Assembly: GCA_964016885.1 (NCBI GenBank)
Contig: OZ024741.1
Location: 22,630,001-22,694,000 of the forward strand
Direction of reading: 5' to 3'
Source of the DNA: Eledone cirrhosa
Lineage: Eukaryota
DNA: 64,000 nt
Positions 3,001 to 64,000 of this stretch are shown piece by piece; the stretch's first letter is position 1; every line of letters starts with the position of its first letter. The notes beneath the pieces are model-generated. The model worked only from the letters and a program-made list of their open reading frames with translations, ran no database searches and was not told the origin of the DNA. Position numbers and translations under genes: made by a program.

Positions 3001-6000
3001 CTACATATCCTTGGTAAGATGACAGTCTACTAGTGAAGTTGTTGACCTACAACAGTCCTACATATCCTTGGTAAGATGACAGTCTACTAGTGAAGATGTT
3101 GATCTACAACAGTCCTACATGTCCTTGGTAAGATGATAGTCTACTAGTGAAGTTGTTGACCTACAGCAGTCCTACATATCCTTGGTAAGATGACAGTCTA
3201 CTAGTGAAGTTGTTGACCTACAACAGTCCTACATATCCTTGGTAAGATGACAGTCTACTAGTGAAGCAGTTGACCTACAACAGTCCTACATGTCCTTGGT
3301 AAGATGACAGTCTACTAGTGAAGTTGTTGACCTACAGCAGTCCTACATGTCCTTGGTAAGATGACAGTCTACTAGTGAAGTTGTTGACCTACAGTAGTCC
3401 TACATATCCTTGGTAAGATGACAGTCTACTAGTGAAGTTGTTGACCTACAACAGTCCTACATGTCCTTGGTAAGATGACAGTCTACTAGTGAAGTTGTTG
3501 ACCTACAACAGTCCTACATATCCTTGGTAAGATGACAGTCTACTAGTGAAGTTGTTGACCTACAGCAGTCCTACATGTCCTTGGTAAGATGACAGTCTAC
3601 TAGTGAAGTTGTTGACCTACAACAGTCCTACATATCCTTGGTAAGATGACAGTCTACTAGTGAAGTTGTTGACCTACAGCAGTCCTACATGTCCTTGGTA
3701 AGATGACAGTCTACTAGTGAAGTTGTTGACCTACAACAGTCCTACATATCCTTGGTAAGATGACAGTCTACTAGTGAAGTTGTTGACCTACAACAGTCCT
3801 ACATGTCCTTGGTAAGATGACAGTCTACTAGTGAAGTTGTTGACCTACAGCAGTCCTACATGTCCTTGGTAAGATGACAGTCTACTAGTGAAGTTGCTGA
3901 CCTACAGCAGTCCTACATATCCTTGGTAAGATGACAGTCTACTAGTGAAGTTGTTGACCTACAACAGTCCTACATGTCCTTGGTAAGATGACAGTCTACT
4001 AGTGAAGTTGCTGACCTACAGCAGTCCTACATATCCTTGGTAAGATGACAGTCTACTAGTGAAGTTGTTGACCTACAGCAGTCCTACATGTCCTTGGTAA
4101 GATGACAGTCTACTAGTGAAGTTGTTGACCTACAGTAGTCCTACATATCCTTGGTAAGATGACAGTCTACTAGTGAAGTTGTTGACCTACAACAGTCCTA
4201 CATGTCCTTGGTAAGATGACAGTCTACTAGTGAAGTTGTTGACCTACAACAGTCCTACATATCCTTGGTAAGATGACAGTCTACTAGTGAAGTTCTTGAC
4301 CTACAGTAGTCCTACATATCCTTGGTAAGATGACAGTCTCCTAGTGAAGTTGTTGACCTACAACAGTCCTACATGTCCTTGGTAAGATGACAGTCTACTA
4401 GTGAAGTTGTTGACCTACAGCAGTCCTACATGTCCTTGGTAAGATGACAGTCTATTAGTGAATTTGCTGACCTACAGCAGTCCTACATGTCCTTGGTAAG
4501 ATGACAGTCTACTAGTGAAGCTGTTGACCTACAACAGTCCTACATGTCCTTGGTAAGATGACAGTCTACTAGTGAAGTTGTTGACCTATAACAGTCCTAC
4601 ATATCCTTGGTAAGATGACAGTCTACTAGTGAAGTTGTTGACCTACAGCAGTCCTACATATCCTTGGTAAGATGACAGTCTACTAGTGAAGTTGTTGACC
4701 TACAGCAGTCCTACATATCCTTGGTAAGATGACAGTCTACTAGTGAAGTTGTTGACCTACAACAGTCCTACATGTCCTTGGTAAGATGACAATCTACTAG
4801 TGAAGTTGCTGACCTACAGCAGTCCTACATATCCTTGGTAAGATGACAGTCTACTAGTGAAGTTGTTGACCTACAACAGTCCTACATATCCTTGGTAAGA
4901 TGATAGTCTACTAGTGAAGTTGTTGACCTACAGTAGTCCTACATATCCTTGGTAAGTTGACAGTCTACTAGTGAAGTTGTTGACCTACAACAGTCCTACA
5001 TGTCCTTGGTAAGATGACAGTCTACTAGTGAAGTTGTTGACCTACAGCAGTCCTACATGTCCTTGATAAGATGACAGTCTACTAATGAAGTTGCTGACCT
5101 ACAGCAGTCCTACATATCCTTGGTAAGATGACAGTCTACTAGTGAAGTTGTTGACCTACAACAGTCCTACATGTCCTTGGTAAGATGACAGTCTACTAGT
5201 GAAGTTGTTGACCTACAGCAGTCCTACATGTCCTTGGTAAGATGACAGTCTACTAGTGAAGCTGTTGACCTACAACAGTCCTACATGTCCTTGGTAAGAT
5301 GACAGTCTACTAGTGAAGTTGTTGACCTATAACAGTCCTACATATCCTTGGTAAGATGACAGTCTACTAGTGAAGTTGTTGACCTACAGCAGTCCTACAT
5401 ATCCTTGGTAAGATGACAGTCTACTAGTGAAGTTGTTGACCTACAGCAGTCCTACATATCCTTGGTAAGATGACAGTCTACTAGTGAAGTTGTTGACCTA
5501 CAACAGTCCTACATATCCTTGGTAAGATGACAGTCTATTAGTGAAGTTGTTGACCTACAACAGTCCTACATATCCTTGGTAAGATGACAGTCTACTAGTG
5601 AAGTTGTTGACCTACAACAGTCCTACATATCCTTGGTAAGATGACAGTCTACTAGTGAAGTTGTTGACCTACAACAGTCCTACATGTCCTTAGTAAGATG
5701 ACAGTCTACTAGTGAAGTTGTTGACCTACAACAGTCCTACATATCCTTGGTAAGATGACAGTCTACTAGTGAAGTTGTTGACCTATAACAGTCCTACATA
5801 TCCTTGGTAAGATGACAGTATACTAGTGAAGTTGTTGACCTACAGCAGTCCTACATGTCCTTGGTAAGATGACAGTCTACTAGTGAAGCTGTTGACCTAC
5901 AACAGTCCTACATGTCCTCGGTAAGATGACAGTCTACTAGTGAAGCTGTTGACCTACAACAGTCCTACATGTCCTTGGTAAGATGACAGTCTACTAGTGA

Positions 6001-22092: not shown

Positions 22093-22607
22093 TTATGTCT
22101 AATACTACCTTACATAATGACTAATTGTTTCAGAGTTTTATGAATAGTTGATTGAAACAGTTCTGGAACACAACTGGTATTTAGTTTCTGACTCCCCAAA
22201 ATGATGAAAGGCAATGTTGATCTAAAGAGGATTGAACATAAAATGTAACCAATAACAAACAGGAGGAGGAAAGTAAATACTCTAGGGTGATTAAACTAAC
22301 ATCATTAGAGTATAATTATATTGAAAACAAACAAAAAAGAATCTATCCATCTGTATCTATCTATCTACCTATCTACCTATCTCTCTTTACGATGGACACA
22401 TGTGCTGAGCTCGCTCGGTAAGTTTTTGTTTAAATTCATACGGAAATTGTAAACTGTAAACTTTCATTTTTGTACCATTTTGTAGAGGGACTGCCAGGTC
22501 AAATTTTGATCTGGTCGGTCTCTCAAAATATTCTGCGCCTTTGGGCGAAATAGTATTGTGAACATTTTATCTTTCGAAAAACTTCGAAAAACCCTATTTT
22601 GAGAAAA

Positions 22608-24465
22608 ATGGCTGAAGCATCTTCACCATCAATCAAAGAAGGAAAGGGGAAGTCATACTCACAGCTTCCCCCTGCCACTGTCACAGCAGCAGATGCCAAA
22701 GGCAGAGGTCAGAGAGAGGAAGAATTGTCTTCACCTGTTGACCGACCACTCGATGTAGCCACAACTACACAAGAATTTGAAAACAACAACAACAACAACG
22801 ACAACAACAGCAACAGTAAAGACAACAAAAACAACAACAACACAAACGTCACAAGTATCCACACACCAAACGAGAAAGACAACAACAACAACAAAGATGA
22901 AAACAACTCAAACGACGAGAAACAAAACAATACTAAAATCCAAAGCGAAAACAAAATATCTTTTGCACAAACGGCTAAATTATCAGTCGCGTATGTGCTT
23001 GAAGATATTTCAAAAGCAAAAGAAATGCTGGAAAAAGCCAAGAAATATGTATCTTTTGGCGAAAACGGTTCGTTTTCTATACATTCACCTCCAGAACTAA
23101 AAAAACAGACGGAATTACGAACTGTCGTATTCCGAACAATTTTAAATAAAACAAAAAAACCAGCGCAACCATCTCAAGCTGAAATTCAGTTAGTCTTGAA
23201 AGACGCGATGAGAGACATCAATTTTATACAAAAGGATAAACTCTATGGGAGTTTATCCATATTGATGAAAGACGAATTGGCGGCGAAAAAATACTCTGTG
23301 TCGCCAATTCGTTCCACACACTACACCTTCTTCCCCACCTACATGGGTAAAAAAACCCAGAGGATATGGATAACCACCATCACCCCAAACATAAACTACT
23401 GGTGGTTACTAACCGGTTTCCTCAATTTAGACGAGGACAACCTCGTTTCAATAGGGAAGGCATCCGGCGATGCGTTCAGTGGAACGAGCATCGAAGTTCT
23501 GACCCAAATAAGGCCAGAATGCATCGCCCAAATCCCTGAGCGCGTCATGCTGGATGACCGTACCCACCTCAACATTATTGTGGAGGGTAGGCGTCCCTCC
23601 TGTTACCTCTGTGGCAATAGAGGTCACCTGAGGGCTGCCTGTCCACAGCTCACACAGAAAAAAATACTGCTACCAACACCAACACCACCCCAACAACAAC
23701 AACAAAAACAACCACAACAACAACAACAACAACAACAAAAACCAACAACACCACCACCACCACAACAACAACAACAACAAACACGTGAAAAAATAACACA
23801 GAATACTGTCCCACCCAATCCCTCCCCACCCAAAACAAATACAAAAACACACACCGCAAACACTACCAGAAAACATACCCCTCCCACCCAACAAGGAAGA
23901 CGAACCCCTTTCGTCGCAAGACGAAAAAGATCCCTTACCAACAAGTAAAAAGAAAGAAGAGGAGACGCACCACAGACACACATGTTAACTTTAACCCCCC
24001 CCCCCCAAGAGAACACAAACTACACACAAACACCCCTCCCCGTCACACAACACTAACTGCTACACAAAAAAAGACCTTACAATATACATACATGAACATA
24101 GACAACAAAGAATTACGGAAAACAATTTCAGCAAACCCTTCGGTCCAAACTGAAGGGCCAAACTTTATAACTGCTGTGGGACTACCTCATTTGAAAATGA
24201 TAAAAGTCCCAATGCACTTGTACAAAACACTGAAAATAAATTTCACGGAGGACGTGGGCCCCCCCCCCCCTGCGCCAAACCAATCAACCGCGTCCTCCTA
24301 AAAAATTCCCCCCCCCCCCACCCAGACACCCACTCAACCACAAACACCCCAACCCCACAACACACCGATGCCCCTTCACTTCCACAAACCACCACCCCAC
24401 CCAACAACCCATCCCCAACCAGCATGGAAATTGAGCGGCCCGTTTCCCGGGACGCAGAGAGGTAA
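22608..24465 (+). pseudogene. Tx1-like ORF1 (gag-like nucleic-acid-binding protein with zinc knuckle); open to 23948, C-terminus frameshifted
   Basis: MAEASSP... with N-rich and P/Q-rich linkers and the motif VEGRRPSCYLCGNRGHLRAACP (CX2CX4HX4C). Fragments continue across C/A homopolymers to MEIERPVSRDAER* ending at 24465. Confidence 0.8.
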
Positions 24466-24489
24466 GTGCCTTTTCTCTTTACCACCAAC

Positions 24490-27400
24490 ATGGCTGTGCT
24501 AAGAGTAGGGTGTCTAAATGAGCGTGGCCTGGGCTCATCTTGGAAGCAAGCAATGCTTCTAAATGACCTCAGGTCACAATCTATAAATGTGATGGTTATC
24601 TGCGAGGCCCGGATCAGCAACATGCGGCAGCTAGCCCCCACCTTTGATGACTTTGAGATGCACGCATCTCTCTGTCAGCCCGGAGGTGGGGGTGGGGTTG
24701 TCATTCTGCTGCAAAAACATATGGGCCTTGCAACACAGATAGTTCACTTGGACCCAGGGGGTCGACTGGTGGTGCTGGACCTTGGCAGTGGTGAAGGTAG
24801 AGCCTTTAGGCTGGTAGCCGCATATGCCCCTTTTGGGACAGAGCGGCCCGACTTTTTCCAGCGTCTGGAGTCCTTTCTAGGGACGTCCCGTTCCCTGCTT
24901 TTAGTGGGGGATTGGAATGGTATCCTGGATGCACGTTGGGACTATGCAGGGGCATGTCCCGATAGAGAGGGGTGCAACAGCCTCAAGGGGTTACTCGGCC
25001 GATTTGACCTGGCCGATAGATTTCGACTAGATTTTCCGACGGTGCCAACCTGGTCTTGGTCAAATCGCAGCGGATCATCTAGGTCGTACCTAGATAGATT
25101 TTTAGTTAGAAATAAGGACAGGGACTTTTTAAGTTGTCCAGAAATGCTCATGGTTGGCTATTCAGACCACAAGTTGGTGACCTGCATGGTCAACCTTGAT
25201 AGAACGCATAGACAGGGCCCCGGATACTGGAAGCTCAACTTGTCCTTGCCGGCAAGTAGAGCCTACAGGGATCGGATTAGTACGTTAGTTAAGGAACGGT
25301 TGACTGGAGCGATCGTCAACAGCAGGTGGTGGGTATCTCTAAAGAGAGAGATTAGAGTAGTCTCGATAGAATTTAGTAAGGTTCTAGCTGCGGATAGGAA
25401 TAGGAAGGAAAGGGAGCTAATAGATAGAGTAGAAGAGGCAATTAGAAGCGGCGACGTGGCCAGAGTGCTAGCGTCGAGAACGGCTTTGAGCCAGCTTTCG
25501 ACGCCAAGCACGAAGGCTGCGTTGTCCGAAGTAAAATACGTGCTCTAGGGAACGAGGGGACCAAAGCTGTTAGCTGGGCCCGAGTGACAGAGGCCAACAG
25601 TGGAACTAAATCTACCATCCGGTCTTTGCGAGACCTGGATGGACGGGCGATTCTTGAGCCTAAGCAGATGTGTGAGGCTTTTCAAAGGCACTTTGCCCGA
25701 CTGTTCGGGAGGGGCGGGGAGCTGGTTGGGAACGTGGACTTCGGTCCATACCTCGACGGCCTGCCGCGCCTCTCGGACAGGGAGGCGAAGTCCTGCGAGG
25801 AGCCGATTTCGGCCGCGGAGATAGAGGACGTGCTGAGCCAATGCGGCAAACGCAAATCCCCGGGTCTCGTTGGTCTTCCTTACGAATTATATCTAGCTAT
25901 GCCGGACTTGTTCCCCGATCTCCTCGAGGCGGTCTACTGCAACTGGCAACAGAACGGAAGAATTCCCTGTACTGTGACCAAGGGCGTAGTCATGCTAGTG
26001 AGGAAGGACGAGAACAAGGGGGACGAAATAAGTAACTTCAGGCCCATAACTCTGCTAAATACAGAGTTACAGATTTTGGCCAAGGTGTTAGCAAAGAGGT
26101 TGGTGCTTGTCGTGGGCAACCTGGTGGGAGATGCGCAGACATGTGCTATCCCGTCCAGGTCCATCCACGACAACCTCCACCTCATGCGATACATCATAGA
26201 GAGGGTTGGGAACGAACCCGGCTTTGGTGGGGCCCCGATCAACTTGGATCAATCTAAGGCGTTCGATAGGGTCGACCATGGTTACCTGGATGCGGTGCTA
26301 GCGGCGGCAGGCTTCGGACCCGTTTTCAGGGGCTGGATCAATGCCATGCACAGCAGTCGCATCTGCTCTAGGGTCAAGGTGAACGGCTACTTCTCGGAGC
26401 CGTTCGAAATCGCGCGGTCCATCCGACAGGGGTGCCCTCTCTCCTCCCTTCTGTATGTAATGACTCTAGAGCCACTGCTGCGGAAGTTGGAGTTGTTGCA
26501 GGGCATCCCGTTGGAACCGGGATTGCGGAAAGCGGTGTCGGCCTACGCCGATGACGTAACAGTAATGGTGTCGACGGCCTCGGAAATCGGGGCGATCGGC
26601 ACCTTACTGGAGGAGTACGAAAGGTTTACAGGGGCTAAGCTGAACCGGGACAAGTCGATCGGTCTGCAACTCGGCACGTGGAGGAGAAGATCGATGCCCT
26701 CCGATGGTGTCGTCGGGCGCTAGACGGAGGGCCCGGTGAAGTTACTCGGGGTCTGGTTCTGACCAGACCTCCAGGTGGAGAAGAACTGGGGTGAGGTAAT
26801 GAACAGGGTGTTTGCACTGACCCAGAAGTGGGCCGAGTGCAAACTGTCCCTGAAAGGTCGGACGGAGGTAGTGAACACTTATATAGCGTCCGTCATCTAC
26901 TACCGCCTGACCGTCGTGCCTTGCCCAAGGGAAACGCTTGCCAATATGGAGCGCGCACTCTTCCAATTACTTTGGAAGAAGCGCCCTCCTATGGTGAGGA
27001 GATCCATCTGCTGCCAACAACCTTCGAAAGGAGGGCTGGGAATGCCGTGGTTGATGATACGTAAACACGCATTAAGGCTACGGCACCTCCAGGTATTCCT
27101 CACCGGTCAACCGGTGTGGGCTCCGTTTGTGAGGCGAGCCTTTCCCAGACTCGTCTCACTCACCGAGCTGCAATCCTGGGTCAAGCAAAGACCGAGAAAA
27201 CTGGGCGCCTGGCACACCGAGTGTGCTCAGGCGCTCGCGGCTCTCTGGCAGGCGGACCCGGCTGTCAGTGAAGAATCCACCTCGTCATTCTATAGAGGGC
27301 TCATGCTTAGCAGGTGCGACAACGCCCTCAGAGAAGCCCTAGGCAAGACGAACTGGCCAACCTGTTCGGTAGGACATTCAGCCCGGGACCCATGGATAAC

Positions 27401-27918
27401 TTCCAGAGGTCCCTGGCCTGGCAGTGCTACCGAGGGGCTCTGCCCGTTCGAGAAAGGCTCTACAGACACGGTCGCCGGGTAGGGACTCCTCGAAAAAGAT
27501 CTGTCCCACATGCGTGTACGACGAGGAAACCGTTGCACACGCATTGGTACAGTGCTCGGGCATTGCCGATCTGTGGGGCTATGTCGAACGACTGCTGTCA
27601 AGGGTGGGACCGATCCAGTTGACCACCGAGTCTATTGTAACGATCAAGCCGCCTCCCCTCTTCAAAAACGAAGGAGAGGCGGTGTTTCTGTGCGTAATAG
27701 CCATGGCGAAAGAGGTTGTATGGTGGACGTGTCTGAAAGGACTGAGGTCAGACACCTTTCTCTCTGGCCAACAACTAGTCCGTTCCTTCCGATATCATTT
27801 CGGAAGAAGGATCAGGATGGAGAGAGAGGTGCTGCACCCCAGCCGTTTTTATGAAAGATGGGTGAAAGTGGCGAGAATGGCCCGTGTGAATGGGCCTTCA
27901 CTCTACATCAGACTATAG
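24490..27918 (+). pseudogene. Tx1-like ORF2 (AP endonuclease + reverse transcriptase + C-terminal CCHC finger) with frameshifts and nonsense codons
   Basis: Motifs LRVGCLNERGL, VGDWN, YLDRF, YSDH, GPGYWKLN, FRPITLLN, LDQSKAFDRV, RQGCPLS, YADD and CPTC..ETVAHALVQC. Frameshifts near 25500, 27345 and 27480. In-frame stops at 26721 (TAG) and 26760 (TGA). Confidence 0.93.
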
Positions 27919-34588: not shown

Positions 34589-34817
34589 TCAAAAATAGAA
34601 GTATTACATCATAAACTCGTAGAAGATAGTACGATATATTAAGTTAGACGCCTTATTCAAAAGCGAAGCGTGCTCAATGCTTCATTGATTCTCCATCATA
34701 ATTTTGTGTGTGTATATATTATGGCGCGCGCACGCACGCACACGCGTGTGTGTGTTATGTAATTCCAAAGGAAAAGCAAAGGGGGAAAAGAGTGCTCTAT
34801 GTATAGAACAGAGCTAT

Positions 34818-35003
34818 TTAATTAGAAAGTGAACAACACAAAATATAACTACTCCATTACCAAAGGTTTCTGGATCACAGATAGAGATGTTATGGATAAA
34901 AGATATGAAAAAAATGTGTTATCGTATATATTATTATCGTCTGTGATCCAGAAACCTTTGGTAATGGAGTAGTTATATTTTGTGTTGTTCACTTTCTAAT
35001 TAA
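34818..35003. repeat. Perfect 64-bp inverted repeat with a 58-bp spacer
   Basis: 34818-34881 is the reverse complement of 34940-35003. Confidence 0.95.
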
Positions 35004-35075
35004 TTATATATATTTCGTCGGAAAGGTCCAGGAAAAAGGAGTGCTCTATGTAGGTAACAGAGCTTAATAGTTATG

Positions 35076-35366: not shown

Positions 35367-35541
35367 GGATAAATTTACGTGCTTACTTTGAAGAAAGGAT
35401 GCGAAAAATATGAAGTTTTACAAATATATACCATATGTCATATATATTATATATATATATATATATATGACATATGGTATATATTTGTAAAACTTCGTAT
35501 TTTTCGCATCCTTTCTTCAAAGTAAGCACGTAAATTTATCC
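35367..35541. repeat. Palindrome with ~78-bp arms and a (TA)n centre
   Basis: The arms differ at one site (tatg vs tacg). Confidence 0.95.
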
Positions 35542-49371: not shown

Positions 49372-52300
49372 CATCATCATCATCATCATCATCACCGTTT
49401 TACGTCCGTTCTTCCACGCTAGCATGGGTTAGACGGGTTGTCCTGTTGTGGGCAGTGTCTGGTCGGCTGACCATGCCTTGCTCATACAGGAACTGATCTG
49501 GCTTGATTTCTACAGCTGGATGCCCTTCCTAACACCAACCTCATTTACAGTAAGTGCTGGGTGCTTTTTCGTGGCGCCTACACGTCCACTTTACAGTGTG
49601 GGCTGGGTGCTTTTTTGCCGTGGCACCTCCATGACCACCTTGCGGGGGGGGGGGGCATATTGTTTATATGCTTCAGCATGTACCCATGGGAGGTCGGGTA
49701 CCCTGTATTACTGCGTGACGCCAGAAGTCACGGTCGTGTGTCATTGACTTTGAGAGGTGTAGTTGGGTAAGGTCGGCTTTTATCACCTCATCCCAAGTCA
49801 TCTTGGGTCTCCCCACTCCGCGGTTTCCTTCAACTTCTAGTGCTCTGCACCTTTTTATGCAGCTGTCATCCTTCATACGCATCACATGTCCATACCAGCG
49901 TAACTGCCTCTCCTGCACGCAGCATTTGATTCCTCTTATGCTCAGTCTCTCTCTCAATTCCTTTATGCTTTGTCGTTCACGTATATTACTGTTACACATC
50001 CATCGGAGCATGCAGGCTTCGTTTCTCTCTAATCTACGTAAGTCTTCCACCTTCAGCGCCCAGGTCTCACTACCATGCAACATCGCTGTTCGGATACACG
50101 CATCATACAGTCTGCCTTTCATTCTGAGGGAGAAGCCTTTTGCAGCTAGCAGTGGTAGTAGTTCCCTAAACTTCTTCCATCCCGTTCTTACCCTAGTTAT
50201 TGTACTTTCTGAGCACCCACCTCCGTTGCTAATTCGGTCACCTAGGTAGCAGAAGCTGTCTACTGTTTCTACAGGGCCATCCCAGAGATTGGTGGTACTT
50301 GTTTCCTGTGGCTGTTTGCTTGCTGTTTCAGCACAGCTGCTGCATGTGAATCCTACATTCTTAATTAAGCTTCCTGAGATCCCGCTACATCTCTTGTGTA
50401 CCCATTGTTTGCATTTGGGGCAGAGAATGGAGTTCCTACCTACACCTTTCCTACATACTGAGCAAGGCCATTTCCCTGAGGGGATCTGGGTTCTGTTTTC
50501 TCGTCTACTTATAAGGACCTTAGTCTTTGTCATGTTGACTTTGAGGCCCTTTCTCTCTAGTCCCTGGTTCCAGGTTTGGAATTTATTCTCTAGTTCTACC
50601 ATAGATTCAGCTATGAGTGCGAGGTCATCAGCATACAGGAGTTCCCATGGGCATCCGGTCTTAAACTCCTCCGTTATTGCCTGCAGGACTATGATGAACA
50701 GGAGAGGGCTAAGAACAGAGCCCTGGTGGACCCCAACCTGTACGCTAAATTCCTCGCTATACTCATTGCCAATCCTAACTTTGCTGACTGCTCCCCTATA
50801 CATGGCTTGTACCGCTTTCACAAGCCATTCATCTACTCCTAGTTTTCTAAGAGCCCACCAGATTACTGCACGTGGAACTCTGTCAAAGGCTTTCTCAAGG
50901 TCGACAAATGCCAAGTAGAGTGGCTTACTTTTAGCTAGGTACTTTTCCTGTAATTGCCTCACAAGGAAGAGGGCATCAGTGGTGCCTTTCCCTGGTACAA
51001 ACCCAAATTGCATCTCGTCTATATTCACCCGGTCCCTAATCAGCTGTGCTATAACTCTTTCTGTTACTTTCATGACCTGGTCCATCAACTTTATACCTCT
51101 ATAGTTTCCTCTATCTAGTGCATCGCCTTTACCTTTGTAGCAGTTGACAATGATGCTACTGCACCAATCTTTTGGTATGGCCCCCTCTAGTATTACCTGG
51201 TTAACGATACGTGTGGTTATAGTGTGACCTACAGACCCAGATGCCTTCAGCATCTCGGCAGCTATACCCGATGGACCAGTTGCCTTCCCTATCTTCATAT
51301 CTCTGATTGCCTTACTTACTATGCTGCCGCTGACTTGTACTGCTGGTCCCTCTATAGGGTCTACGTGGGGTAGGGTCTCTTCTTCCCATGCATTCTCCTC
51401 ATTTAGTAATCTATCATAATGACTCTTCCATGCATCTTTCTTCTCAGCACTTGTGAGGGCAAGCTCACCTTTATCATTCCGGATACACTTCTCTCCAATG
51501 ACATCACAACTATCTCTGACACACTGCCTCGCAATCTTGAATACCTCCTGTTTCTGGTCCTCACGTAAAACATGCTTGAATTTTCTATCCTCTGCTTCCC
51601 TCCTAGCTAAGTATACTTGTCGCCTAGCTTCCCTCTTGGTCTCTATGTAATGTACCCTGCTCCCCCCGTTCTTCCATTCTTTCCATGCCTGTCTCTTGGC
51701 CTTGACTGCTTCATCTACCTTATTGTTCCACCACCAAGTCACTCTCCTCCTGCTTGAGGTCTTACTCCAGCCACAAACCTCATCCGTCGCCTCTAGTAAG
51801 TTATTTTTTAGGAACTCCCAGTTCTCTTCTACGTTAAATGTCTCTATCTGTTCTTCTTTACTGTCGTAGGCGTTGAGTAAAATATCTTTAAATCTGTTAC
51901 TGGTTGAGGGGACTTTCAGCTTCCAGATCTTTCTTCTCCAGGTTGGCCTCTGTTTCAGGGCTCGTCTAGTTCTGACCGCGAGGTCGCTGACAACTAAGCT
52001 ATGTTGGGATGTACATTCCTCACTAGGGAAGGCTTTTGTGTTTACGACCGTCCATCTGTCACGTCCTCTGATGAGGATAAAATCTAACTGACTAGAGTGC
52101 TCCCCTGATCTATAGGTGATCAGGTGGTTGTCGGGTTTTTTAAAGTTTGTGTTACATATCGACATGTCATTGGCGTCGCAGAATTCTAGAAGTCTGAATC
52201 CTTCCTCATTCCTTGTGCCAACTCCATGGCCTCCATGTACTCTATTGAAGCCGTCGCAGTGTTTACCTACGTGTCCGTTAAAATCTCCTGCAATGATTAG

Positions 52301-53486
52301 GAAGTCCTTGTCGTCTGTTAGAGCAGTAGTGTGTATTAGGGACTCGTAAAACCTATCCTTAAGCTCGTCTGGCAGTCCCGATTGGGGTGCGTAAGCTGAT
52401 ATTATTGTGGTAATTGTCTTATTCAGGACTAGTCTGAGTTTAATGATTCTTGCATTTACCCTGTACACTGAGATTACTTTATCTACCCACTTGTCAGCTA
52501 ATAGTATACCTACACCACCCATCCCATCGTCATTTCCCACCCAGAAAAATTTGTAGCACTGGCTTTTTCCCAGAAGGACTCTAGCAGACCCTCCTCTCCA
52601 TCTAGTCTCTTGCACACAGCATACATCAACTTCCTTTCGCTCTAGCATTTCTACGATTTCTCCTGCTCTTCCTTTCATTGAGCCTACATTGATGGTACCA
52701 ACTCGGAGTTTTGGGCATTTGTCGACACTCGTAGGGGAGGGTCTCTGGGTTGGCGCTTCACGTGGGTGCTTGGTAGCTCGCAGATTCATATTTCATCTAT
52801 TGATTCAGAGTTGCTCGTGTATTCCCAGCTTCTACCCATAACGGTGGGAAAATTGAGGGCTAGAAGAACAGTGGTGGTGGGGTAATGGCAGGGTGTGTTG
52901 GGATGCGCCAGAGGAGGAGAGAGTTAGTTAGGCAGGTAGTAGCAGCAGCAGTGGAAATGGCATGCTAGGTTTGATTGGTCGAATAGACTATGGTGGTGTG
53001 TGGGGGTGGGGGGGAGGGAAATTGTGAGGTAGGAACTGAGGGTTGCATGGTAAATATCCAAGTTAATACTACATCAGTAAAATTAACAATAATAACGTCA
53101 TGAAAAACTACTAAGAGAAACCCTCGAAAATTTATCGCTAATACAGCAGGGAAAATTTAACGCTAATACAGCAGGGAACATCATAATATTAACGACAATA
53201 TGTAGGCTAAAATACCTTCGTAGATTAGATGGATGGCTGGAAAAATTGGAATCAGCTCTAGTGATACATTTTAGCAGAGAAGAATGGGAAAGTGTCTTAT
53301 CTCTTCAATATTTTCAGATTGAATGAATTAGGTTAAAGACAGGGTAGTAGCCTTAAAGAAGTGCATAGAGAGGGGGGGGGGGGTAGGAACTGAGGGTCGC
53401 ATGGTAAATAACTGAGAGAGATACAATAGGATTAGAATACCGCATGGTAAATATCCAAGTTAATAAGTTAATAAGTTAATAAGTTA
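49372..53486 (-). mobile_element. Apparently full-length RTE-clade LINE (5' boundary approximate)
   Basis: (ATG)n tail at 49372-49394, 3' UTR, single long ORF, and ~0.7 kb of upstream sequence with internal direct repeats ending at a TA/CA tract. Confidence 0.85.
49673..52789 (-). CDS. RTE LINE polyprotein, 1038 aa: AP endonuclease + reverse transcriptase + Cys/His (PHD-like) finger
   Basis: Uninterrupted ORF with VGTINVGS, CVQET, GDFNGH, LDF, YRGIKL, FVDLEKAFDRV, HQGSVLSP, YADD, CSVC..CPKC..HKRC..CSSC, YLG and GRPKMTW. Confidence 0.95.
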   Translation of the reverse strand: MNLRATKHPREAPTQRPSPTSVDKCPKLRVGTINVGSMKGRAGEIVEMLERKEVDVCCVQETRWRGGSARVLLGKSQCYKFFWVGNDDGMGGVGILLADKWVDKVISVYRVNARIIKLRLVLNKTITTIISAYAPQSGLPDELKDRFYESLIHTTALTDDKDFLIIAGDFNGHVGKHCDGFNRVHGGHGVGTRNEEGFRLLEFCDANDMSICNTNFKKPDNHLITYRSGEHSSQLDFILIRGRDRWTVVNTKAFPSEECTSQHSLVVSDLAVRTRRALKQRPTWRRKIWKLKVPSTSNRFKDILLNAYDSKEEQIETFNVEENWEFLKNNLLEATDEVCGWSKTSSRRRVTWWWNNKVDEAVKAKRQAWKEWKNGGSRVHYIETKREARRQVYLARREAEDRKFKHVLREDQKQEVFKIARQCVRDSCDVIGEKCIRNDKGELALTSAEKKDAWKSHYDRLLNEENAWEEETLPHVDPIEGPAVQVSGSIVSKAIRDMKIGKATGPSGIAAEMLKASGSVGHTITTRIVNQVILEGAIPKDWCSSIIVNCYKGKGDALDRGNYRGIKLMDQVMKVTERVIAQLIRDRVNIDEMQFGFVPGKGTTDALFLVRQLQEKYLAKSKPLYLAFVDLEKAFDRVPRAVIWWALRKLGVDEWLVKAVQAMYRGAVSKVRIGNEYSEEFSVQVGVHQGSVLSPLLFIIVLQAITEEFKTGCPWELLYADDLALIAESMVELENKFQTWNQGLERKGLKVNMTKTKVLISRRENRTQIPSGKWPCSVCRKGVGRNSILCPKCKQWVHKRCSGISGSLIKNVGFTCSSCAETASKQPQETSTTNLWDGPVETVDSFCYLGDRISNGGGCSESTITRVRTGWKKFRELLPLLAAKGFSLRMKGRLYDACIRTAMLHGSETWALKVEDLRRLERNEACMLRWMCNSNIRERQSIKELRERLSIRGIKCCVQERQLRWYGHVMRMKDDSCIKRCRALEVEGNRGVGRPKMTWDEVIKADLTQLHLSKSMTHDRDFWRHAVIQGTRPPMGTC

Positions 53487-53505
53487 TACATACGCATACA
53501 TATAT

Positions 53506-53542
<37 letters not shown>

Positions 53543-53630
53543 GTAGGAGGTGAGTTTTATTGTAGTACAATAAAGCAATGCAGATATCGGATAAGAAGCA
53601 CTCTACAGTTTGTAGGACTGGAGTATACAC

Positions 53631-53949
53631 AATATATAAGAACAAAAGATGGCCAAAAGAGCTCCATGTACTTCACCATGCGCACTTCAAAAACAAACAT
53701 CATCATGCAACAACATTTGTGTTTTCATCAGACAAAACAGGAAGACATGATATGAAGGCCAAAAAACACTTGTGGATAGTTCAGTTTTAAATGAACTGAA
53801 CTATCCACAAGTGTTTCCCAACCTTCACATCATGTCCTCCCGCTTCATCTGATGAAAACACAAACACCACTGCATGATGACACCTGTCTTTGAAATGCGC
53901 ACAACAAAACACATGGAACTCCTCCAACCATCTTTTGTTCTTATATATT
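53631..53949. repeat. 156-bp inverted repeat with 7-nt loop, hammerhead-like core and strand-polarised transitions
   Basis: Arms at 53631-53786 and 53794-53949 with no indels and 36 differences, all C/T or A/G in one polarity. Core CTGATGA (53849)...GAAA (53892). Confidence 0.95.
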
Positions 53950-53956
53950 ATATATA

Positions 53957-56900
53957 TCATCATCATCATCATCATCAGGTTTAGCGGCCGTGTTCCACGC
54001 TTGCATGGGTTTGGACGGGGGTTTTCCCACTTGAGGCAAGAGTGGTTGTCTTGCTCGCATAGGACTGTCTGGCGGGTTTTCTACAGTTGGATGCCCTTCC
54101 TAACACCAACCACATTTACAGTGTGGGGCTGGGAGGTTTTTACCGTGTTGCCTACACGGCCACATTACAGCGTGGACTGTCTGGCGGGTTTTCTACAGCT
54201 GGATGCCCTTCCTAACACCAACCACATTTACAGTGTGGGGCTGGGAGGTTTTTACCGTGTTGCCTACACGGCCACATTTACAGCGTGGACTGTGTGTTTT
54301 TTGTCGTGACACCTACACGATCTCATTTGTTTCGGCCTGGATGTTGTGGGACCAACATAACTTTACATTGAAAGGGGCGGTGTGGGTGGGGTGGAGGTGG
54401 TGGGACGGGGGGGTGTTTTGATAGAGATGCCTACTGACTGTAGTAGGTTTTTACTTTGTATTTAGGTAAGGCGGGTCTACTCTATTACTGAGTACCGCCA
54501 AAGGTCTCGGTCCAGTGACATTGTCTTGGAGAGGTGTAAGCGTGTGAGGTCGGAATTTATCAGCTCGTCCCATGTTTTTCTGGGTCTGCCTACTCAGTGG
54601 CTACCGTCTATCTTTATTGCCCTGCACTTTGTTATACAGCTGTCGTCTTTCATGCGCATCACGTGACCGTACCAACGTAGCCTTCTCTCGAGTAAACAAC
54701 ATCTGATCCCTCTTATTTCTAATTTTTTCCTTAGTTCGTTTATGCTTTGCCGTTCACGTATATTACTATTGCACATCCAGCGGAGCATGCAAGCTTCGTT
54801 CCTCTCTAGTCTGCGTATATCCTCTGCACACAATGCCCAGGTCTCACTGCCATGCAGCATTGCTGTTCGTATGCAGGCATCGTATAACCTGCCTTTCATT
54901 TTTAGGGAGAACCCTTTAGCGGCTAATAGTGGTATAAGCTCTCTGAACTTTTTCCATCCAGTTCTGACTCTAGCTACTGTACTTTCAGAGCACCCTCCCC
55001 CACTGCTGATTTTGTCACCCAGATAACGGAAGCTGTCCACTATTTCTATAGAACCCTCTGCGCAGTTGAAGGAGCTAGTATTTTGTGGGCACTTGCTGCT
55101 ACTTATTGCACCAGAGCACTGGCCACATGTAAAATCTATGTTCTTAGTTAGCTTACCTGTGATCCCACTACATCTTTTATGCACCCATACTTTGCATTTG
55201 GGACATAAAATGGAGTTTCTACCTACGCCTTTCCTACACACTGAGCATGGCCATTTCCCCGATGGGACCGCCGCCTTATTTTCTTTCCTACAAACTAGAA
55301 CTTTAGTCTTAGCCAGGTTAATTTTAAGGCCTTTTGATTCTAGGCCGTGCTTCCACGTTTGGAATTTCTTCTCTAGTTCGGTCATTGATTCAGCTATGAG
55401 CGTTAGATCATCTGCGTATAGGAGTTCCCATGGGCAGCCGGTCTTGAACTCCTCTGTTATAGCCTGAAGGGCAATAATAAATAGTAGGGGGCTAAGAACA
55501 GAGCCCTGATGGACACCAACTTTTACGCTAAACTCTTCACTATATTCGTTGTTAATTCTAACCTTACTGACTGTTTCTTTATACATGGCTTGTATAGCTC
55601 TCACAAGCCATTCGTCAACACCTAGTTTTCTAAGAGACCACCAGATAATGGAACGGGGGACTCTGTCGAAGGCTTTCTCCAAGTCGACGAAAGCTAAGTA
55701 TAGGGGTTTACTTTTAGCTAGGTACTTCTCCTGTAGTTGTCGTACAATGAAAAGAGCGTCTGTGGTACTTTTGCCTGACACAAACCCGAACTGCATTTCA
55801 TCTAGATCAATTCTCTCTCTGATTAGTTGCGCTATTACTTTTTCCGTGACCTTCATGACCTGGTCGATTAATTTAATGCCTCTATAGTTACTCCTATCTA
55901 GGGCATCTCCTTTTCCCTTATAGCAGTTAACGATGATGCTGCTACGCCATTCCTTCGGAACAACCCCATTCTGTACGACTTGGTTAACTATCCGGGTGAC
56001 CATGGTGTGTCCCACCGAACCAGATGCCTTCAGCATCTCAGCAACTATTTCCGAAGGCCCAGCCGCCTTACCCGTCTTCATATCTTTGATTGCCTTACTT
56101 ATTATACTACCTTCAACTAACACTGCTGGTCCCTCTATTGGATCGATCTGGGGGAGACTGTCTTTCTCCCATTTGTTCTCCTCATTTAGAAGCCTTTCGT
56201 AGTGACACTTCCAAGCTACCTTCTTATCAGCGTCGGTGATGGCAAGTATGCCATCATCGTTAAGTACACACTTCTCCCCGACAATATCACGGTTTTCCTT
56301 GACACATTGCCTGGCAATCCTGAACACCTCACGTTTTTGGTCCTCACGTTGTAGAACATGCTTGAACTTTCTTTCCTCTGCTTCCCTTCTTGCGAAGTAC
56401 ACTTGTCTCCTAGCTTCCCTCCTGGCCACTTGATAGTCTTCTCTACTTCCCCCATCCCGCCATACTTTCCAAGCCTGCTTTTTGGCCTTAATTGACTCCT
56501 CCACCTTACTGTTCCACCACCATGTTACTCTCCTCCTACCTACAGGCCTGCTCCAGCCACAGACTTCGTCTGCCGCCGTCAGCAGGTTTGCTCTCAGGAA
56601 TTCCCACTGTTCCTCTATATTATACGATTCTAATTGCTCTTCCTTACTGTCGAAAGCGTCAAGTAATATGCTTTGAAATTTATTTCTGGCTATGGGGTCC
56701 TTTAGCTTCCATATTTTTCTCCTGAGGATAGTCCTCTTCCGCTGTCTAGTACGTCTCGTCCTGACTATGAGGTCGCTAATTATCAGTCTATGTTGGGAGG
56801 TGAATTCTTCATGGGGGTGGGATTTAGTGTTAACAACAGACACTCTGTCACGTCTTCTGGTAAGGACATAATCTACCTGGCTTGTGTGTTCCCCCGATCT

Positions 56901-57486
56901 ATAGGTGATCAAGTGATTGTCTCGTTTTTTGAAGTTAGTGTTACAGATAGTTAAGTTATTTGCGTCGCAGAATTCCAGGATTCTGGAGCCTTCCTCATTT
57001 CTAGTACCGAACCCATAGCCTCCATGGATTCCGTCATAGCCGTCACAATGTTGTCCAACGTGACCATTTAGGTCGCCTGCAATAACTATATAGTCACTGT
57101 CGGTTATTTGGGAGGTAGCGAGCATCAGTGTCTCGTAGAATCTGTCTTTTATAGCGCGGGGCAGTCCGGATTGGGGTGCGTACGCAGATATTACTGTCAC
57201 CGTAGTTTTATTGAGGACAAGTCTTATTTTAATTATTCTGTCGTTCACTCTATTTACGTCTATTATCTTATCTGCCCACTTTTCTGCTACCATGATTCCT
57301 ACCCCACCCAACCCATTGTCATTTCCCACCCAGAAAAGCTTATAGCATCGTTCTTTACCCACGATGAATCTAGCCGACCCTCCCCTCCACCTGGTCTCTT
57401 GAATACAACAAACATCGACCTCCTTACGTTCAAGCATTTCTACAACCTCGTTAGAGCGACCCTTTAAGGTGCCTACATTCATGGTA
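53957..57486 (-). mobile_element. Second RTE-clade LINE, truncated at the very start of the endonuclease
   Basis: (ATG)n tail at 53957-53976 and a 3' UTR with a 112-bp tandem duplication (54062/54174). Homology to the 63001 copy stops at ~57486, where TA/CA repeats begin. Confidence 0.92.
54477..57482 (-). pseudogene. RTE polyprotein, open from ATG 57482 to a premature TGA at 54594-54596; frame continues VGRPRKTW...YSVIE*
   Basis: Same domain set as 49673-52789. The stop replaces the G of the conserved GVGRP motif. Confidence 0.9.
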
Positions 57487-57925
57487 TATATATATACACA
57501 TACACGCACGCACGCGCGCGCACATACGTAGTCGCTCATGTACATATATAGAAAGTATACACACATTAAGGCGTTCAACCACATTGATACAGGGTGTAAA
57601 AAACTTGAGGATAAGTAAGTACAAATATAAAATTGTAAGATTGGCTGCGTAAAAATAAAAAAATAAAAATAAAAATGAAAAATATATCTGGAGTGGAAAA
57701 CACAAATGACATGTGTAATCATTTAGTGAAGGAAATAAGGAAGTAAAAAATGGAAAGTGAAAATATTAGGTAAGTGAATCGGAGAATAAATGGGGGGGGG
57801 GGGTTATTGGTGGATGTGAAGTAAAAATAAAAATAAAAAATAAATATAAAAATAAATGAAATTAATGATAAGGATAAAAATGAAAGTAAGTCAGAAAGGG
57901 TAATTAAAAAGAGAATAATAAGAGT

Positions 57926-58605: not shown

Positions 58606-60244
58606 ATACAATATAAACAGTTTTATAGATAAATAGATTCGACATACCGTTATAACACCGACTTGCATTTGAAGAGGTTAAGCTGGCAGTGAAAAAATTT
58701 TATACAGAGAGAAAGAAAGAGAGAAAAAAGAGAGAAAAAAGAAAGACAGAAAACGAAGAAAAGGAAGAAAAAGAAGAAATGCATGGAACAAAATATAGAG
58801 ATGGAAAGATAGATAAAGAGAAGAACTTCATGTAAAGAAACAGAAAGAGATATATATATATATATATAGAGAGAGAGGAAATAGAGATAGATACATATAT
58901 ATATAGAAAATTAGGTAGTGGGAGGTCATTTTGAGTAAATGTATCAATGATACATTTATTTATTTATTTATTTATTTAGCTCTAGTATTAATGTAAGGGA
59001 GATATATATAGAGAGAAAAAAATATAGAGAGAGAAAAAATAGCGAGAGAAAAAATTTAAAAATAGCCAGATATATTCGAGGCGTAAAAACCCTATGTCTT
59101 AATGTATTAGAATTCATAAACCTTCTACTATATTGTAAATATCAGTATTCCTGAATGAGACAAGTATCCATAGTGTGTGAAAATTAATTATCTTATGTTT
59201 AGTTTTTTAAAAAATTCATATGTTTATGTTATAGCTACAAACATCCATGCGAATCCATATTATCAACTCTGCAAACTCTAAGTTCACGGAAAACATTCTC
59301 AATGTGGTATAAAAATTTGAGTATACATATATGTGTATTATTATTCCTGTCTTTACTCTACAAGATTATCTATCAAGCAGAAATAGAGAGCAGATTTCAA
59401 TATACTAATAAAAATATATATCAGAAACAAAACAAAAATAAAAAGATAACAATAATAATAATAAGTAATAATAAAATAGAAAGTTAAAAAAATATTATGA
59501 AAGAATATTACATATTAAAAATATTACATACTAAAAAATATTACGTATTAAAAAATATTACGTATTAAAAAATTTACATATTAAAGATATTAAAAATAAA
59601 AATAAAAAATATTATAAAATACTACAATAATAAAAAATAAAAATAAACCACAAAGATCAACCCTTCAAAATTAATTGACAATATATTGCCAAGTTCATTA
59701 TAAGACAAAGCCAAAAATTATCTATCAAATCACATCTAGCAAAGATCATTTCAAAAAGTTTATGATGTCCAATTTGGTCTACATGTGTTCTTATATTTAA
59801 TATAGAAGTTTATCTAGTGTAAGGTTTATTCAAAATATTTGGAGCATCAGCTTTTAGGGTAGCTTAATTTTTCATGAGGAATGTTTAAATAAAAATAAAA
59901 TAAAAATAAATAAAAATAAACAATAAAAAAAGAATAAAAAGAAGGAATCAAAAATTTAGGAATCAAAAATTTATCGGCTAGTTTCCCATATAAATATAAA
60001 TCAAACTAAATATACTACATTTTAAATTTAAATTTATATTTAAACGTTGAGTTTAATCTATGTTTGCAACAACTGAATAAATTTGTCCGTAGATTAAGGG
60101 AATTTTTAGATTTTAGTATAAAGAATATCTCCTCTGCGCAGAGGTCACATGTCTCAGAGGATGAATTAAAAGGAATCCCCCTTGAGACTATATTCCAAGC
60201 CGTCGAATATCTAACGTTATCTTGCTTAAGTTGCCAGAGTACGC

Positions 60245-60444
60245 NNNNNNNNNNNNNNNNNNNNNNNNNNNNNNNNNNNNNNNNNNNNNNNNNNNNNNNN
60301 NNNNNNNNNNNNNNNNNNNNNNNNNNNNNNNNNNNNNNNNNNNNNNNNNNNNNNNNNNNNNNNNNNNNNNNNNNNNNNNNNNNNNNNNNNNNNNNNNNNN
60401 NNNNNNNNNNNNNNNNNNNNNNNNNNNNNNNNNNNNNNNNNNNN
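60245..60444. other. Assembly gap (200 N)
   Basis: Run of N. Confidence 1.
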
Positions 60445-60519
60445 CATTTTGAAGACCTAATCGCTATAGAATAGAATACGTCACGTATTACAATTAGATT
60501 CTCGATAAAAGCAAGGGAA

Positions 60520-60562
60520 GTAATCTACGCGTTTCATTCTCGTTAGAAATCATCAGGACTAC
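60520..60562 (-). ncRNA. Type I hammerhead ribozyme
   Basis: The minus strand reads gtagtc CTGATGA tttct aacg agaat GAAA cgcg TA gattac. Confidence 0.75.
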
Positions 60563-61168
60563 ATATCCAGTGCTTTTATCGAGAATGACACAGCTAGAGA
60601 CTTATAGAATACTTAGCTGTGTACAGGAACTGGTTTGAAAGAGCGGTTGCCGGTCCGGTAGAAATTAGAAATTGGAATAAATGCTCTGAAATAGCGATAT
60701 ATATGTGAATATAGACATAGAATATTCGAAAATATTCTGTATGTTTATAATAAACATTTTGAAGACCTAATCGCTATAGAATAGAATACGTCACGTATTA
60801 CAATTAGATTCTCGATAAAAGCAAGGGAAGTAATCTACGCGTTTCATTCTCGTTAGAAATCATCAGGATGATTTCTAACGAGAATGAAACGCGTAGATTA
60901 CTTCCCTTGCTTTTATCGAGAATCTAATTGTAATACGTGACGTATTCTATTCTATAGCGATTAGGTCTTCAAAATGTTTATTATAAACATACAGAATATT
61001 TTCGAATATTCTATGTCTATATTCACATATATATCGCTATTTCAGAGCATTTATTCCAATTTCTAATTTCTGCCGGACCGGCAACCGCTCTTTCAAACCA
61101 GTTCCTGTACACAGCTAAGTATTCTATAAGTCTCTAGCTGTGTCATTCTCGATAAAAGCACTGGATAT

Positions 61169-61211
61169 GTAGTCCTGATGATTTCTAACGAGAATGAAAC
61201 GCGTAGATTAC
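61169..61211 (+). ncRNA. Type I hammerhead ribozyme
   Basis: gtagtc CTGATGA t ttct aacg agaa t GAAA cgcg TA gattac. Stem I is gtagtc/gattac, extended by the 16-bp pair attctcgataaaagca/tgcttttatcgagaat. Stem III is palindromic. Confidence 0.78.
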
Positions 61212-61477
61212 TTCCCTTGCTTTTATCGAGAATCTAATTGTAATACGTGACGTATTCTATTCTATAGCGATTAGGTCTTCAAATGTTTATTATAAACATA
61301 CAGAATATTTTCGAATATTCTATGTCTATATTCACATATATATCGCTATTTCAGAGCATTTATTCCAATTTCTAATTTCTGCCGGACCGGCAACCGCTCT
61401 TTCAAACCAGTTCCTGTACACAGCTAAGTATTCTATAAGTCTCTAGCTGTGTCATTCTCGATAAAAGCACTGGATAT

Positions 61478-61520
61478 TTAGTCCTGATGATTTCTAACGA
61501 GAATGAAACGCGTAGATTAC
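61478..61520 (+). ncRNA. Type I hammerhead ribozyme (next repeat unit)
   Basis: Same core as 61169, 309 bp downstream. Confidence 0.75.
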
Positions 61521-61644
61521 TTCCCTTGCTTTTATCGAGAATCTAATTGTAATACGTGACGTATTCTATTCTATAGCGATTAGGTCTTCAAAATGTTTAT
61601 TATAAACATACAGAATATTTTCGAATATTCTATGTCTATATTCA

Positions 61645-62736
<1,092 letters not shown>

Positions 62737-64000
62737 CCAGAGGCCTATACTATCGCTTGCCTGGTTGCCTTTCGATATACGATATATGATGGATGGATGG
62801 ACTGCGGAATCCTGGAGAGTGGAGGTGAGAGAGAAAAATCTGGACGCTCAGCGACAATGCCAAAGATAAGACAAATTCACCCCTTGGACGAGAATGCGAG
62901 CACTCCTCATTGTTTCGACCGCGGACGGCTAACATAACCCCATCGCCCCCCGCCCCTCACCGCCCCCCAACCCCCAAACGCAATCCAAAACTTCAGAGTT
63001 GGTACCATAAATGTAGGCACCCTAAAGGGTCGCGCTAACGAGGTTGTAGAAATGCTTGAACGTAAGGAGGTCGATGTTTGTTGTATTCAAGAGACCAGGT
63101 GGAGGGGTGGGTCTGCTAGGTTCATTGAGGGTAAAAAACGTTGTTATAAGCTTTTCTGGGTGGGAAACGACGATGGGCTGGGTGGAGTAGGAATCATGGT
63201 AGCAGAAAAGTGGGCAGATAAGATAATAGACGTAAATAGAGTGAACGACAGAATAATTAAAATACGACTTGTCCTCAATAGAACTACGGTGACAGTAATA
63301 TCTGCGTACGCACCCCAATCCGGACTGCCCGGCACTATAAAAGACAGATTCTATGAGACACTGATGCTAACTACCTCCCAAATATCCGACAGTGACTATA
63401 TAATTATCGCAGGCGACCTAAATGGTCACGTTGGACAACATTGTGACGGCTACGACGAAATCCATGGAGGCTATGGGTTTGGTACTAGAAATGAGGAAGG
63501 CTCCAGAATCCTGGAATTCTGTGATGCAAATAACCTAACTATCTGTAACACTAACTTCAAAAAACGTGACAATCACCTGATCACCTATAGATCCGGGGAA
63601 CACACAAGCCAGGTAGATTATATCCTTACCAGAAGACGTGACAGAGTGTCTGTTGTTAACACTAAATCCCTCCCCCATGAAGAATGCACCTCCCAACATA
63701 GACTGATAATTAGCGACCTCATAGTCAGGACGAGACGTACTCGACAACAGAAGAGGACTATCCTCAGGAGGAAAATATGGAAGCTAAAGGACCCCACAGC
63801 CAGGAATAAATTTCAAAGCATATTACTTGATGCTTTCGACAGTAAGGAAGAACATTTAGAGTCGGACAATATAGAGGGAGAGTGGGAATTTCTGAAAGCA
63901 AACCTGCTGTTGGCGACAGACGAGGTCTGTGGCTGGAGCAGGCCTGTAGGCAGGAGGAGAGTAACATGGTGGTGGAACAGTAAGGTGGAGGGGTCAATTA
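62737..64000 (+). mobile_element. Third RTE LINE (same family as 53957-57486), 5' part, running off the window
   Basis: The frame from ATG 62857 has a TAA at 62935-62937, then stays open to 64000: FRVGTINVGTLKGRANEVVEMLERKEVDVCCIQETRWRGG...GDLNGH...QVDY...VTWWWN. Confidence 0.92.

Follow-up and report, generated by a model that had tools for sequence, protein, structure and literature searches.

The Hydra clade comprises Penelope-like elements (PLEs) of the C-terminal EN+ type, for which inverted, 5'-truncated insertions are usual (Craig et al. 2021, PMC8557442), and in the anole PLE two reverse transcription start sites bound a "tail" (Frangieh et al. 2024, PMC11167929). Transcripts of palindromic repeats, such as Xenopus Harbinger, are known to be hyper-edited as RNA, most strongly in octopus and frog according to the accessible text of Porath et al. 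2017 (PMC5625713). At the level of DNA, ADAR-type A-to-G hypermutation has been described for avian retroviruses (Hajjar & Linial 1995; Felder et al. 1994, as cited in the review PMC12925331), and APOBEC "DNA editing" for endogenous LTR elements (Knisbacher & Levanon 2016, PMC4866542; Zaranek et al. 2010, PMC2873906). The former of these screens, as set out in its accessible text, dealt with LTR elements, selected G-to-A over A-to-G changes and found 19 invertebrate genomes without signal (PMC4866542). A flow of A-to-I edits back into inherited DNA has mostly been argued by hypothesis (e.g. PMC12941027, in its accessible part), and our literature search, with incomplete journal coverage and without supplements, turned up nothing published on transposon copies that ADAR had edited and that became fixed in the germline of an animal.

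The insertion described here lies in a 64-kb stretch of Eledone cirrhosa DNA (contig OZ024741.1), referred to as the window. We consider it likely that this insertion is ADAR-edited PLE RNA that was retro-inserted into genomic DNA, and the analysis supports the overall reading of the initial annotation, which saw in it an ADAR-edited, reverse-transcribed dsRNA hairpin of a PLE. The features of the locus are the following.

53486..53540, no strand: (TA)n-rich target tract at the tail end; other copies are flanked alike.
53543..53956, minus (22,683,543-22,683,956 of the contig): the whole insertion, a hairpin with head-to-head layout derived from part of the pseudo-LTR of a Hydra-type PLE and flanked by the (TA)n tract and a short TA run; pseudo-LTR positions 1-254 align at 53543-53796 and positions 82-244, inverted, at 53956-53794.
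53543..53623, minus: unpaired 3' "tail" of the pseudo-LTR, ~81 nt, unedited (0/23 T changed against four loop siblings).
53624..53786, minus: sense arm of the hairpin, with 15 A>G on the minus strand.
53665..53747, minus: minimal hammerhead-like motif, with core halves at 53731-53725 and 53688-53685, a palindromic stem III and a cleavage triplet ending at 53677.
53787..53793, no strand: 7-nt loop; the same junction, one base different, occurs in six unedited copies.
53794..53956, plus: inverted arm, ending at pseudo-LTR position 82 (a recurrent internal end of the family), with 21 A>G on the minus strand.
53957..57722, minus: LINE, which we take to be RTE-like, whose trinucleotide 3' tail adjoins the inverted arm; probably outside the event, the same tail being found near TA tracts beside other copies.

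The inverted repeat reported initially, two ungapped 156-bp arms (53631-53786 and 53794-53949) around a 7-nt loop, was confirmed, as were its 36 mismatches (22 A/G and 14 C/T), all of a single polarity and without transversions. The full repeat is wider, with 163-nt arms spanning 53624-53956, and includes an extra change of the same type at 53630, whose partner base is 53950. Every mismatch can pair as G.U on the minus strand only, and the minus strand folds into an uninterrupted hairpin with G.U pairs at -247.5 kcal/mol, compared with -178.3 kcal/mol for the plus strand of the same 438 nt. Among 180 arms from 86 unbiased loci of the tail-pattern list, the maximum of any one private substitution type per arm was 4; the same strict count gives 12 and 20 for the window arms. 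The mismatch cluster in the window is far above chance.

Copies of the interval 53541-53956 are numerous in the source genome (3.0 Gb), mostly between (TA)n tracts, in a similarity search of which the best 40 of 861 candidates were scored. A 42-nt piece of the unpaired tail has 9,079 exact genome matches (4,521 forward and 4,558 reverse), and 38 of the 86 loci sampled from this 42-mer list have the head-to-head layout. Locus L067 is an intact parent, in which direct pseudo-LTRs at 540-798 and 4249-4508 enclose a single 808-aa frame; its orientation corresponds to the minus strand of the window, which is therefore the sense strand. All four Hydra-clade marks as defined in PMC8557442 (DKT for DKG, the CxCX5C linker, and the C-terminal CxxC and CxH) are found in the L067 protein, which has RWI, not RWK, at the likely position of the N-terminal RWK motif, and RT catalytic-type and GIY-YIG-like motifs are visible by eye. 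A Pfam search of the parent ORF gave no match. Atlas look-alikes of the protein score 0.95-0.98, and among the members of lower-ranked Atlas clusters GIY-YIG is present in 26-50% and RVT_1 in 18-77%. Both the aligned copies and the edited loci have (TA)n target flanks. By its layout and motifs, the parent is a young, high-copy, presumptively autonomous Hydra-type PLE (EN+).

The PLE origin proposed for the hairpin thus held, the hairpin being part of the pseudo-LTR of an identified PLE with the minus strand as sense, and the accompanying label of retrozyme proved unneeded, the unit being a head-to-head fragment of an autonomous element's pseudo-LTR. A retrozyme, in the accessible text of bioRxiv 10.64898/2026.07.22.740005, is a non-autonomous tandem or circular-RNA unit bounded by ribozymes, which a fragment of an autonomous PLE is not. 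Six unedited copies match the loop junction of the window to one base and have 4-11 differences from it other than T>C; no exact unedited donor of the window hairpin was found among these loop-junction copies. At the six loci the tail stands on either side of the same 7-nt junction. At the hairpin centres of L002, L005, L007 and L190-L195, the tips differ in small deletions about a palindromic midpoint, and two forms exist, flip and flop, each the reverse complement of the other.

A hammerhead-like core in the PLE pseudo-LTR, also proposed initially, is indeed present: the core halves around stem II, stem I and an NUH triplet can all be identified, and the motif is intact in 93 of the 98 motif matches at the unbiased loci. 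A constrained fold of the sibling L191 contains stems I and II, and stem III is absent from the monomer fold; the palindromic 6-mer of stem III could pair in a dimer. Because an Rfam search with the window region and the intact pseudo-LTR found no hammerhead and no other credible family, and because stem III is unformed in the monomer, we keep to the label hammerhead-like. The claim that editing struck the ribozyme core stands, with the correction that two edits rather than one are involved (53685 and the cleavage-site base 53677). Within the 160-bp duplex, ribozyme folding would hardly be possible regardless of edits.

The surroundings in the window are rich in retroelements. Two long open RT-bearing LINE frames of ~1,040 aa, presumably RTE-like, flank the hairpin (49673-52792 and 54594-57722, both minus), and an inverted LINE copy, 94% identical, reaches the window end (56489-57486 versus 63003-64000). 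We do not favour a 3' transduction by the adjacent LINE, whose tail is also found beside TA tracts at other loci. At 22554-27918 (plus) there is a LINE of a different type, nearly complete, its ORF1-like, endonuclease and RT frames split by frameshifts. The region 60015-60524 (minus) and 60445-61653 holds the C-terminal part of another endonuclease whose motifs resemble those of Hydra-type PLEs; it is broken by a 200-N gap and neighbours an 836-bp palindrome, 99.5% perfect, and further inverted copies. This region could be a further inverted PLE insertion, or else a tangle in the assembly. Two other palindromes had been put forward as an internal control. One (34815-35006) has mixed mismatches and the other (35367-35541) is nearly perfect and centred on (TA)n, so that both lack the one-polarity pattern as claimed, but neither matches the hairpin's pseudo-LTR, and the proper control is therefore the PLE family itself.

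Comparison with this family gives the direction of the changes. Against 28 other family copies the window shows 36 T>C changes plus ten other differences, most of which are subfamily variants or loop positions; against four loop siblings with the tail on the same side, 36 of the 38 differences are T>C and 2 are other bases. At the changed sites the family carries A on the minus strand (T on the plus strand), mostly in 27-28 of the 28 copies, which bears out the A ancestry assumed at the outset. With the four loop siblings as reference, the duplex has 36 of its 119 T sites changed and the tail none of its 23 (p = 0.001), and the sequence outside the duplex, named in advance as a check on the reading, is thus unedited.

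The changes also follow a neighbour rule. On the minus strand, A>G is found at 35 of 79 sites after U or A and at 1 of 40 after C or G (p = 5e-7), and the rule is equal in both window arms (sense arm: U 9/17, A 6/18, C 0/10, G 0/7; inverted arm: U 10/18, A 10/26, C 1/14, G 0/9). Summed by 5' neighbour, the changes number U 18, A 16, C 1 and G 0 with the 28 copies as reference and U 19, A 16, C 1 and G 0 with the four loop siblings, close to the initial tally. A>G change within a duplex, with U or A preferred as 5' neighbour and G avoided, is the established pattern of ADAR hyper-editing, and the window changes bear this signature. Adenosine-deaminase (PF02137) matches are present in the genome on three contigs; the best of these exons is ADAR2-like (E = 3e-102) and retains intact catalytic motifs. 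We infer that ADAR was the responsible enzyme. All 12 deaminase matches lie on the contig plus strand, probably by chance.

The initial annotation had envisaged a one-off edited insertion, an expectation overturned by 15 further clearly hyper-edited copies. The genome was searched with ten motifs, each needing two or three such changes; one motif had no genome match, and the searches yielded 16 distinct loci, 15 of them with clusters (the window counted) and one, L097, without. L097 was dropped as a hyper-edited copy, having only 3 changes. Ten further similarity matches contributed L120, a clear case, and L114, whose 4+4 mirrored changes were classed as weak and left out of the 16-locus total. 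This total is a lower bound, and the substitution-cluster control covers the fetched loci rather than the whole genome. Edited copies are nevertheless rare, since 0 of the 86 unbiased tail-list loci are hyper-edited and none of their arms exceeds 4 changes of one substitution type. Pooled over the 16 loci, changes in the duplex region comprise 375 of the T>C or A>G type and 29 of other types, and those in the tail number 12, of which 3 are T>C; the set of edited sites is particular to each locus. Pooled rates by 5' neighbour (sense/antisense arms) are U 0.71/0.92, A 0.56/0.66, C 0.17/0.33 and G 0.27/0.22. No diffuse low-level ADAR signal was found in ordinary copies, where T>C in the duplex amounts to 2.4 per 1000 sites, with 0 of 965 after U, and A>G to 6.4 per 1000, without clear avoidance of G.

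The edits occur in three arrangements. In the first, both arms are changed on one strand; by strict count this group includes the window (12+20), L083 (28+37), L089 (10+19), L081 (33+22) and L094 at C3:162.26M (13+16). A template of this kind held both arms, which implies that an existing hairpin was transcribed and then reinserted. The edited strand runs tail-first at L081 and L094 and tail-last at the window, L083 and L089. In the (TA)n flanking L081 and L083, every interruption is a C on the plus strand, which would suit co-editing with the hairpin, but unedited loci look similar.

In the second arrangement, the same changes appear mirrored in both arms: 7/7 at L085, 10/10 at L095 (C6:77.06M), 9 shared at L120, 11 shared at L126, 4/4 at the weak L114, and 70 T>C common to both arms at L178; L084 has one mirrored site and its remaining edits in unpaired sequence. 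All loci of this pattern are A>G on the sense strand, and for the clearly mirrored ones this amounts to 6 of 6 (p = 0.03, calculated by hand). Arm-to-arm conversion of a copy of the first type would yield either polarity, suggesting instead that both arms of the mirrored copies were probably made from one sense RNA or its cDNA. L178 (C1:346.296-346.298M) is a 2.7-kb palindromic insertion of an older subfamily, in which mirrored hyper-editing extends over at least 720 nt, far past the standard hairpin. Its edits are missing from 23 relatives (0-3 each) and follow the same context (62/135 with U or A versus 8/52), and its arms are set apart by 24 further substitutions as well as several indels (~92% identical). 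That 70 private edits are common to arms which diverged later favours their residence in inherited DNA.

In the third arrangement, one arm is edited or the edited copy is partnerless (L092, L104, L129 and L096, and an inner antisense fragment of L110). The edits of L104 (C4:294.27M) lie at pseudo-LTR positions 158-245, with none out to 521, and its local partner covers positions 1-102 only; because they are beyond the reach of that partner, the edited duplex must have existed at the donor locus and not at L104. In the partnerless copies L104, L092 and L129, edits are found only where the family's standard hairpin pairs. Neither the second nor the third arrangement can come from editing of the locus's own transcript, which again favours edits in DNA. 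The insertion at L110 (C23:11.67M) consists of three parts, two unedited arms and, enclosed by them, an inner fragment with 6 antisense edits, a layout that suggests template switching between RNAs.

We therefore propose a mechanism in which a pre-existing head-to-head PLE hairpin would have been transcribed elsewhere in the genome, the transcript folding into a duplex of ~160 bp that ADAR would hyper-edit from A to I. The edited RNA would then be reverse-transcribed, most likely by the PLE's own RT, target-primed at (TA)n; inosine would be read as G, and the edits of both arms would become fixed on one DNA strand. The PLE RT is accordingly the presumed maker of the window copy. A second route may account for the single-arm copies, a sense RNA being edited while paired and copied once, and in a variant of it the same edited sense RNA would be copied into both arms of a new inverted repeat, giving the mirrored copies. 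The window copy would be inherited, the event having presumably taken place in the germ line or early embryo, and we regard the insertion as a dead by-product rather than a gene for a functional RNA. With somewhat less assurance than for the window copy itself, we think it probable that ADAR edits repeatedly enter inherited DNA via PLE retrotransposition, with hairpins remobilised as dsRNA templates from either strand and both new arms made from one sense RNA.

Of the alternatives, the one that survives best, although we regard it as improbable, is an assembly artefact, with edited RNA reads or systematic long-read palindrome miscalls entering the consensus. The window haplotype was not recovered in four public sequencing runs (X1, X2, X3 and X5), which possibly come from other individuals and were searched with a read filter active and the LINE side skipped as repeat. 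The share of the window's words found in any public run did not exceed 0.19; shares of 0.12-0.19 are too low to count as evidence, and that no RNA run was listed says nothing about expression. Read depth was 0 at 53813-53846 in X1, X2, X3 and X5 and at 53660-53676 and 53847-53880 in X2, X3 and X5, where these holes prove nothing on absence; a single-copy variant reaches a depth of ~10 in X2. Run X1, whose kind is not on record, does place contigs in edited bins, and its loose ends carry further edited variants, with C-runs in place of T-runs. Apart from its edits, the window copy shows hardly any private change; it is thus possibly young, and it may be absent from other individuals. A 200-N gap ~6 kb from the hairpin also suits an artefact, as do the mirrored copies if taken alone, which would fit a second-arm error; nanopore reads are described as failing in the second arm of inverted duplications (PMC7229812), although the errors in the accessible text are miscalls and skipped bases, not one transition type. 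Second-arm error would not, however, produce one context rule on one strand in both window arms, nor edits at the partnerless L092, L104 and L129 or in the unpaired parts of L084 and L095. None of the 38 unbiased hairpins is affected, and the arms of L178 share their edits though only ~92% identical. The asymmetric copies with T>C on the contig plus strand number 8 of 10 (8:2, p = 0.11), a skew noticed post hoc; with L084 and L178, since reclassed as mirrored, still included, it was 10 of 12 (p = 0.04). The opposite contig polarity, A>G on plus, does exist at L094, L129 and all mirrored right arms. It is because the skew is unexplained that we do not rate the artefact reading lower still.

A burst of reverse-transcriptase errors without RNA editing, e.g. 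from nucleotide-pool imbalance, would also give transitions arising around retrotransposition, as seen here, and such bursts occur in retroviruses. We hold this to be very unlikely: the same enzyme copied the tail and left it unaltered, the changes at L104 end at the family's duplex boundary, and the 5' neighbour rule is that of ADAR.

Adenine deamination at the DNA level during integration, in an RNA:DNA hybrid or a fold-back cDNA, has just as little in its favour. In vitro, ADARs can act on the DNA strand of an RNA:DNA hybrid (PMC12925331, in its accessible text), and a single-stranded fold-back DNA would likewise have both arms on one strand. A hybrid, however, would span the tail and the region beyond position 258, both of which are unedited, and deamination of first-strand cDNA predicts the reverse polarity, while the single-arm and mirrored copies are all A>G in the sense. 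Finally, G/C ancestry with C>T deamination, or selection of G.U pairs in a functional hairpin RNA, can be set aside almost entirely despite the G.U compatibility of all mismatches on the minus strand, given the T (plus strand) of the family at the changed sites, the separate site set of each edited locus and the origin of the element as a fragment of a young high-copy transposon. Editing of the APOBEC type (sense G>A, G/C ancestral) likewise disagrees with the sense-strand A of the family.

If ADAR-edited PLE RNA was indeed retro-inserted, the loci offer a concrete, PCR-testable set for RNA edits in inherited DNA, and the edits serve as single-molecule barcodes that tell which RNA strand was copied and whether one or two templates went into each PLE inverted repeat. 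It is implied that ADAR meets PLE RNA in cells that pass on their DNA; editing there can destroy the core of the hammerhead and may perhaps restrict the element. How general this is could be shown by a scan of the repeats of other animal genomes for one-polarity A/G clusters.

The locus resembles known PLEs in its parent (pseudo-LTR-ORF-pseudo-LTR), (TA)n targets, hammerhead motif, inverted truncated arm and one-sided tail, and the ends of the window unit are the recurrent pseudo-LTR ends 1 and 82, recalling the start sites of the anole PLE (PMC11167929). It differs in a tail of ~81 nt compared with 30-40 nt, and in its editing, of which the accessible texts of PMC8557442 and PMC11167929 make no mention; the mirrored edits bear on how the inverted arm of PLEs arises, a question left open in those texts. 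As in the RNA hyper-editing of PMC5625713, self-folding repeat transcripts are the prime ADAR substrates, but the edits described there are in RNA over unedited DNA, whereas here they are in the assembled DNA. The avian retroviruses are alike in that RT copied hyper-edited RNA, and in an inverted-repeat region with nearly half its adenosines changed (PMC12925331, in its accessible text); those viruses are exogenous, while the present element is an endogenous PLE of non-LTR type, edited at no fewer than 16 loci of a reference genome, one of them an old, diverged copy. With the APOBEC fossils of PMC4866542 and PMC2873906, as far as their accessible texts describe them, the locus shares deaminase footprints in the form of clustered, strand-biased changes in genomic retroelements. 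If our reading is true, such copies would be for ADAR, in an animal genome, what edited endogenous retroviruses are for APOBEC: those fossils are G>A from cytidine deamination of the single-stranded cDNA of vertebrate LTR elements, whereas the changes here are A>G, confined to duplex RNA, and in a PLE.
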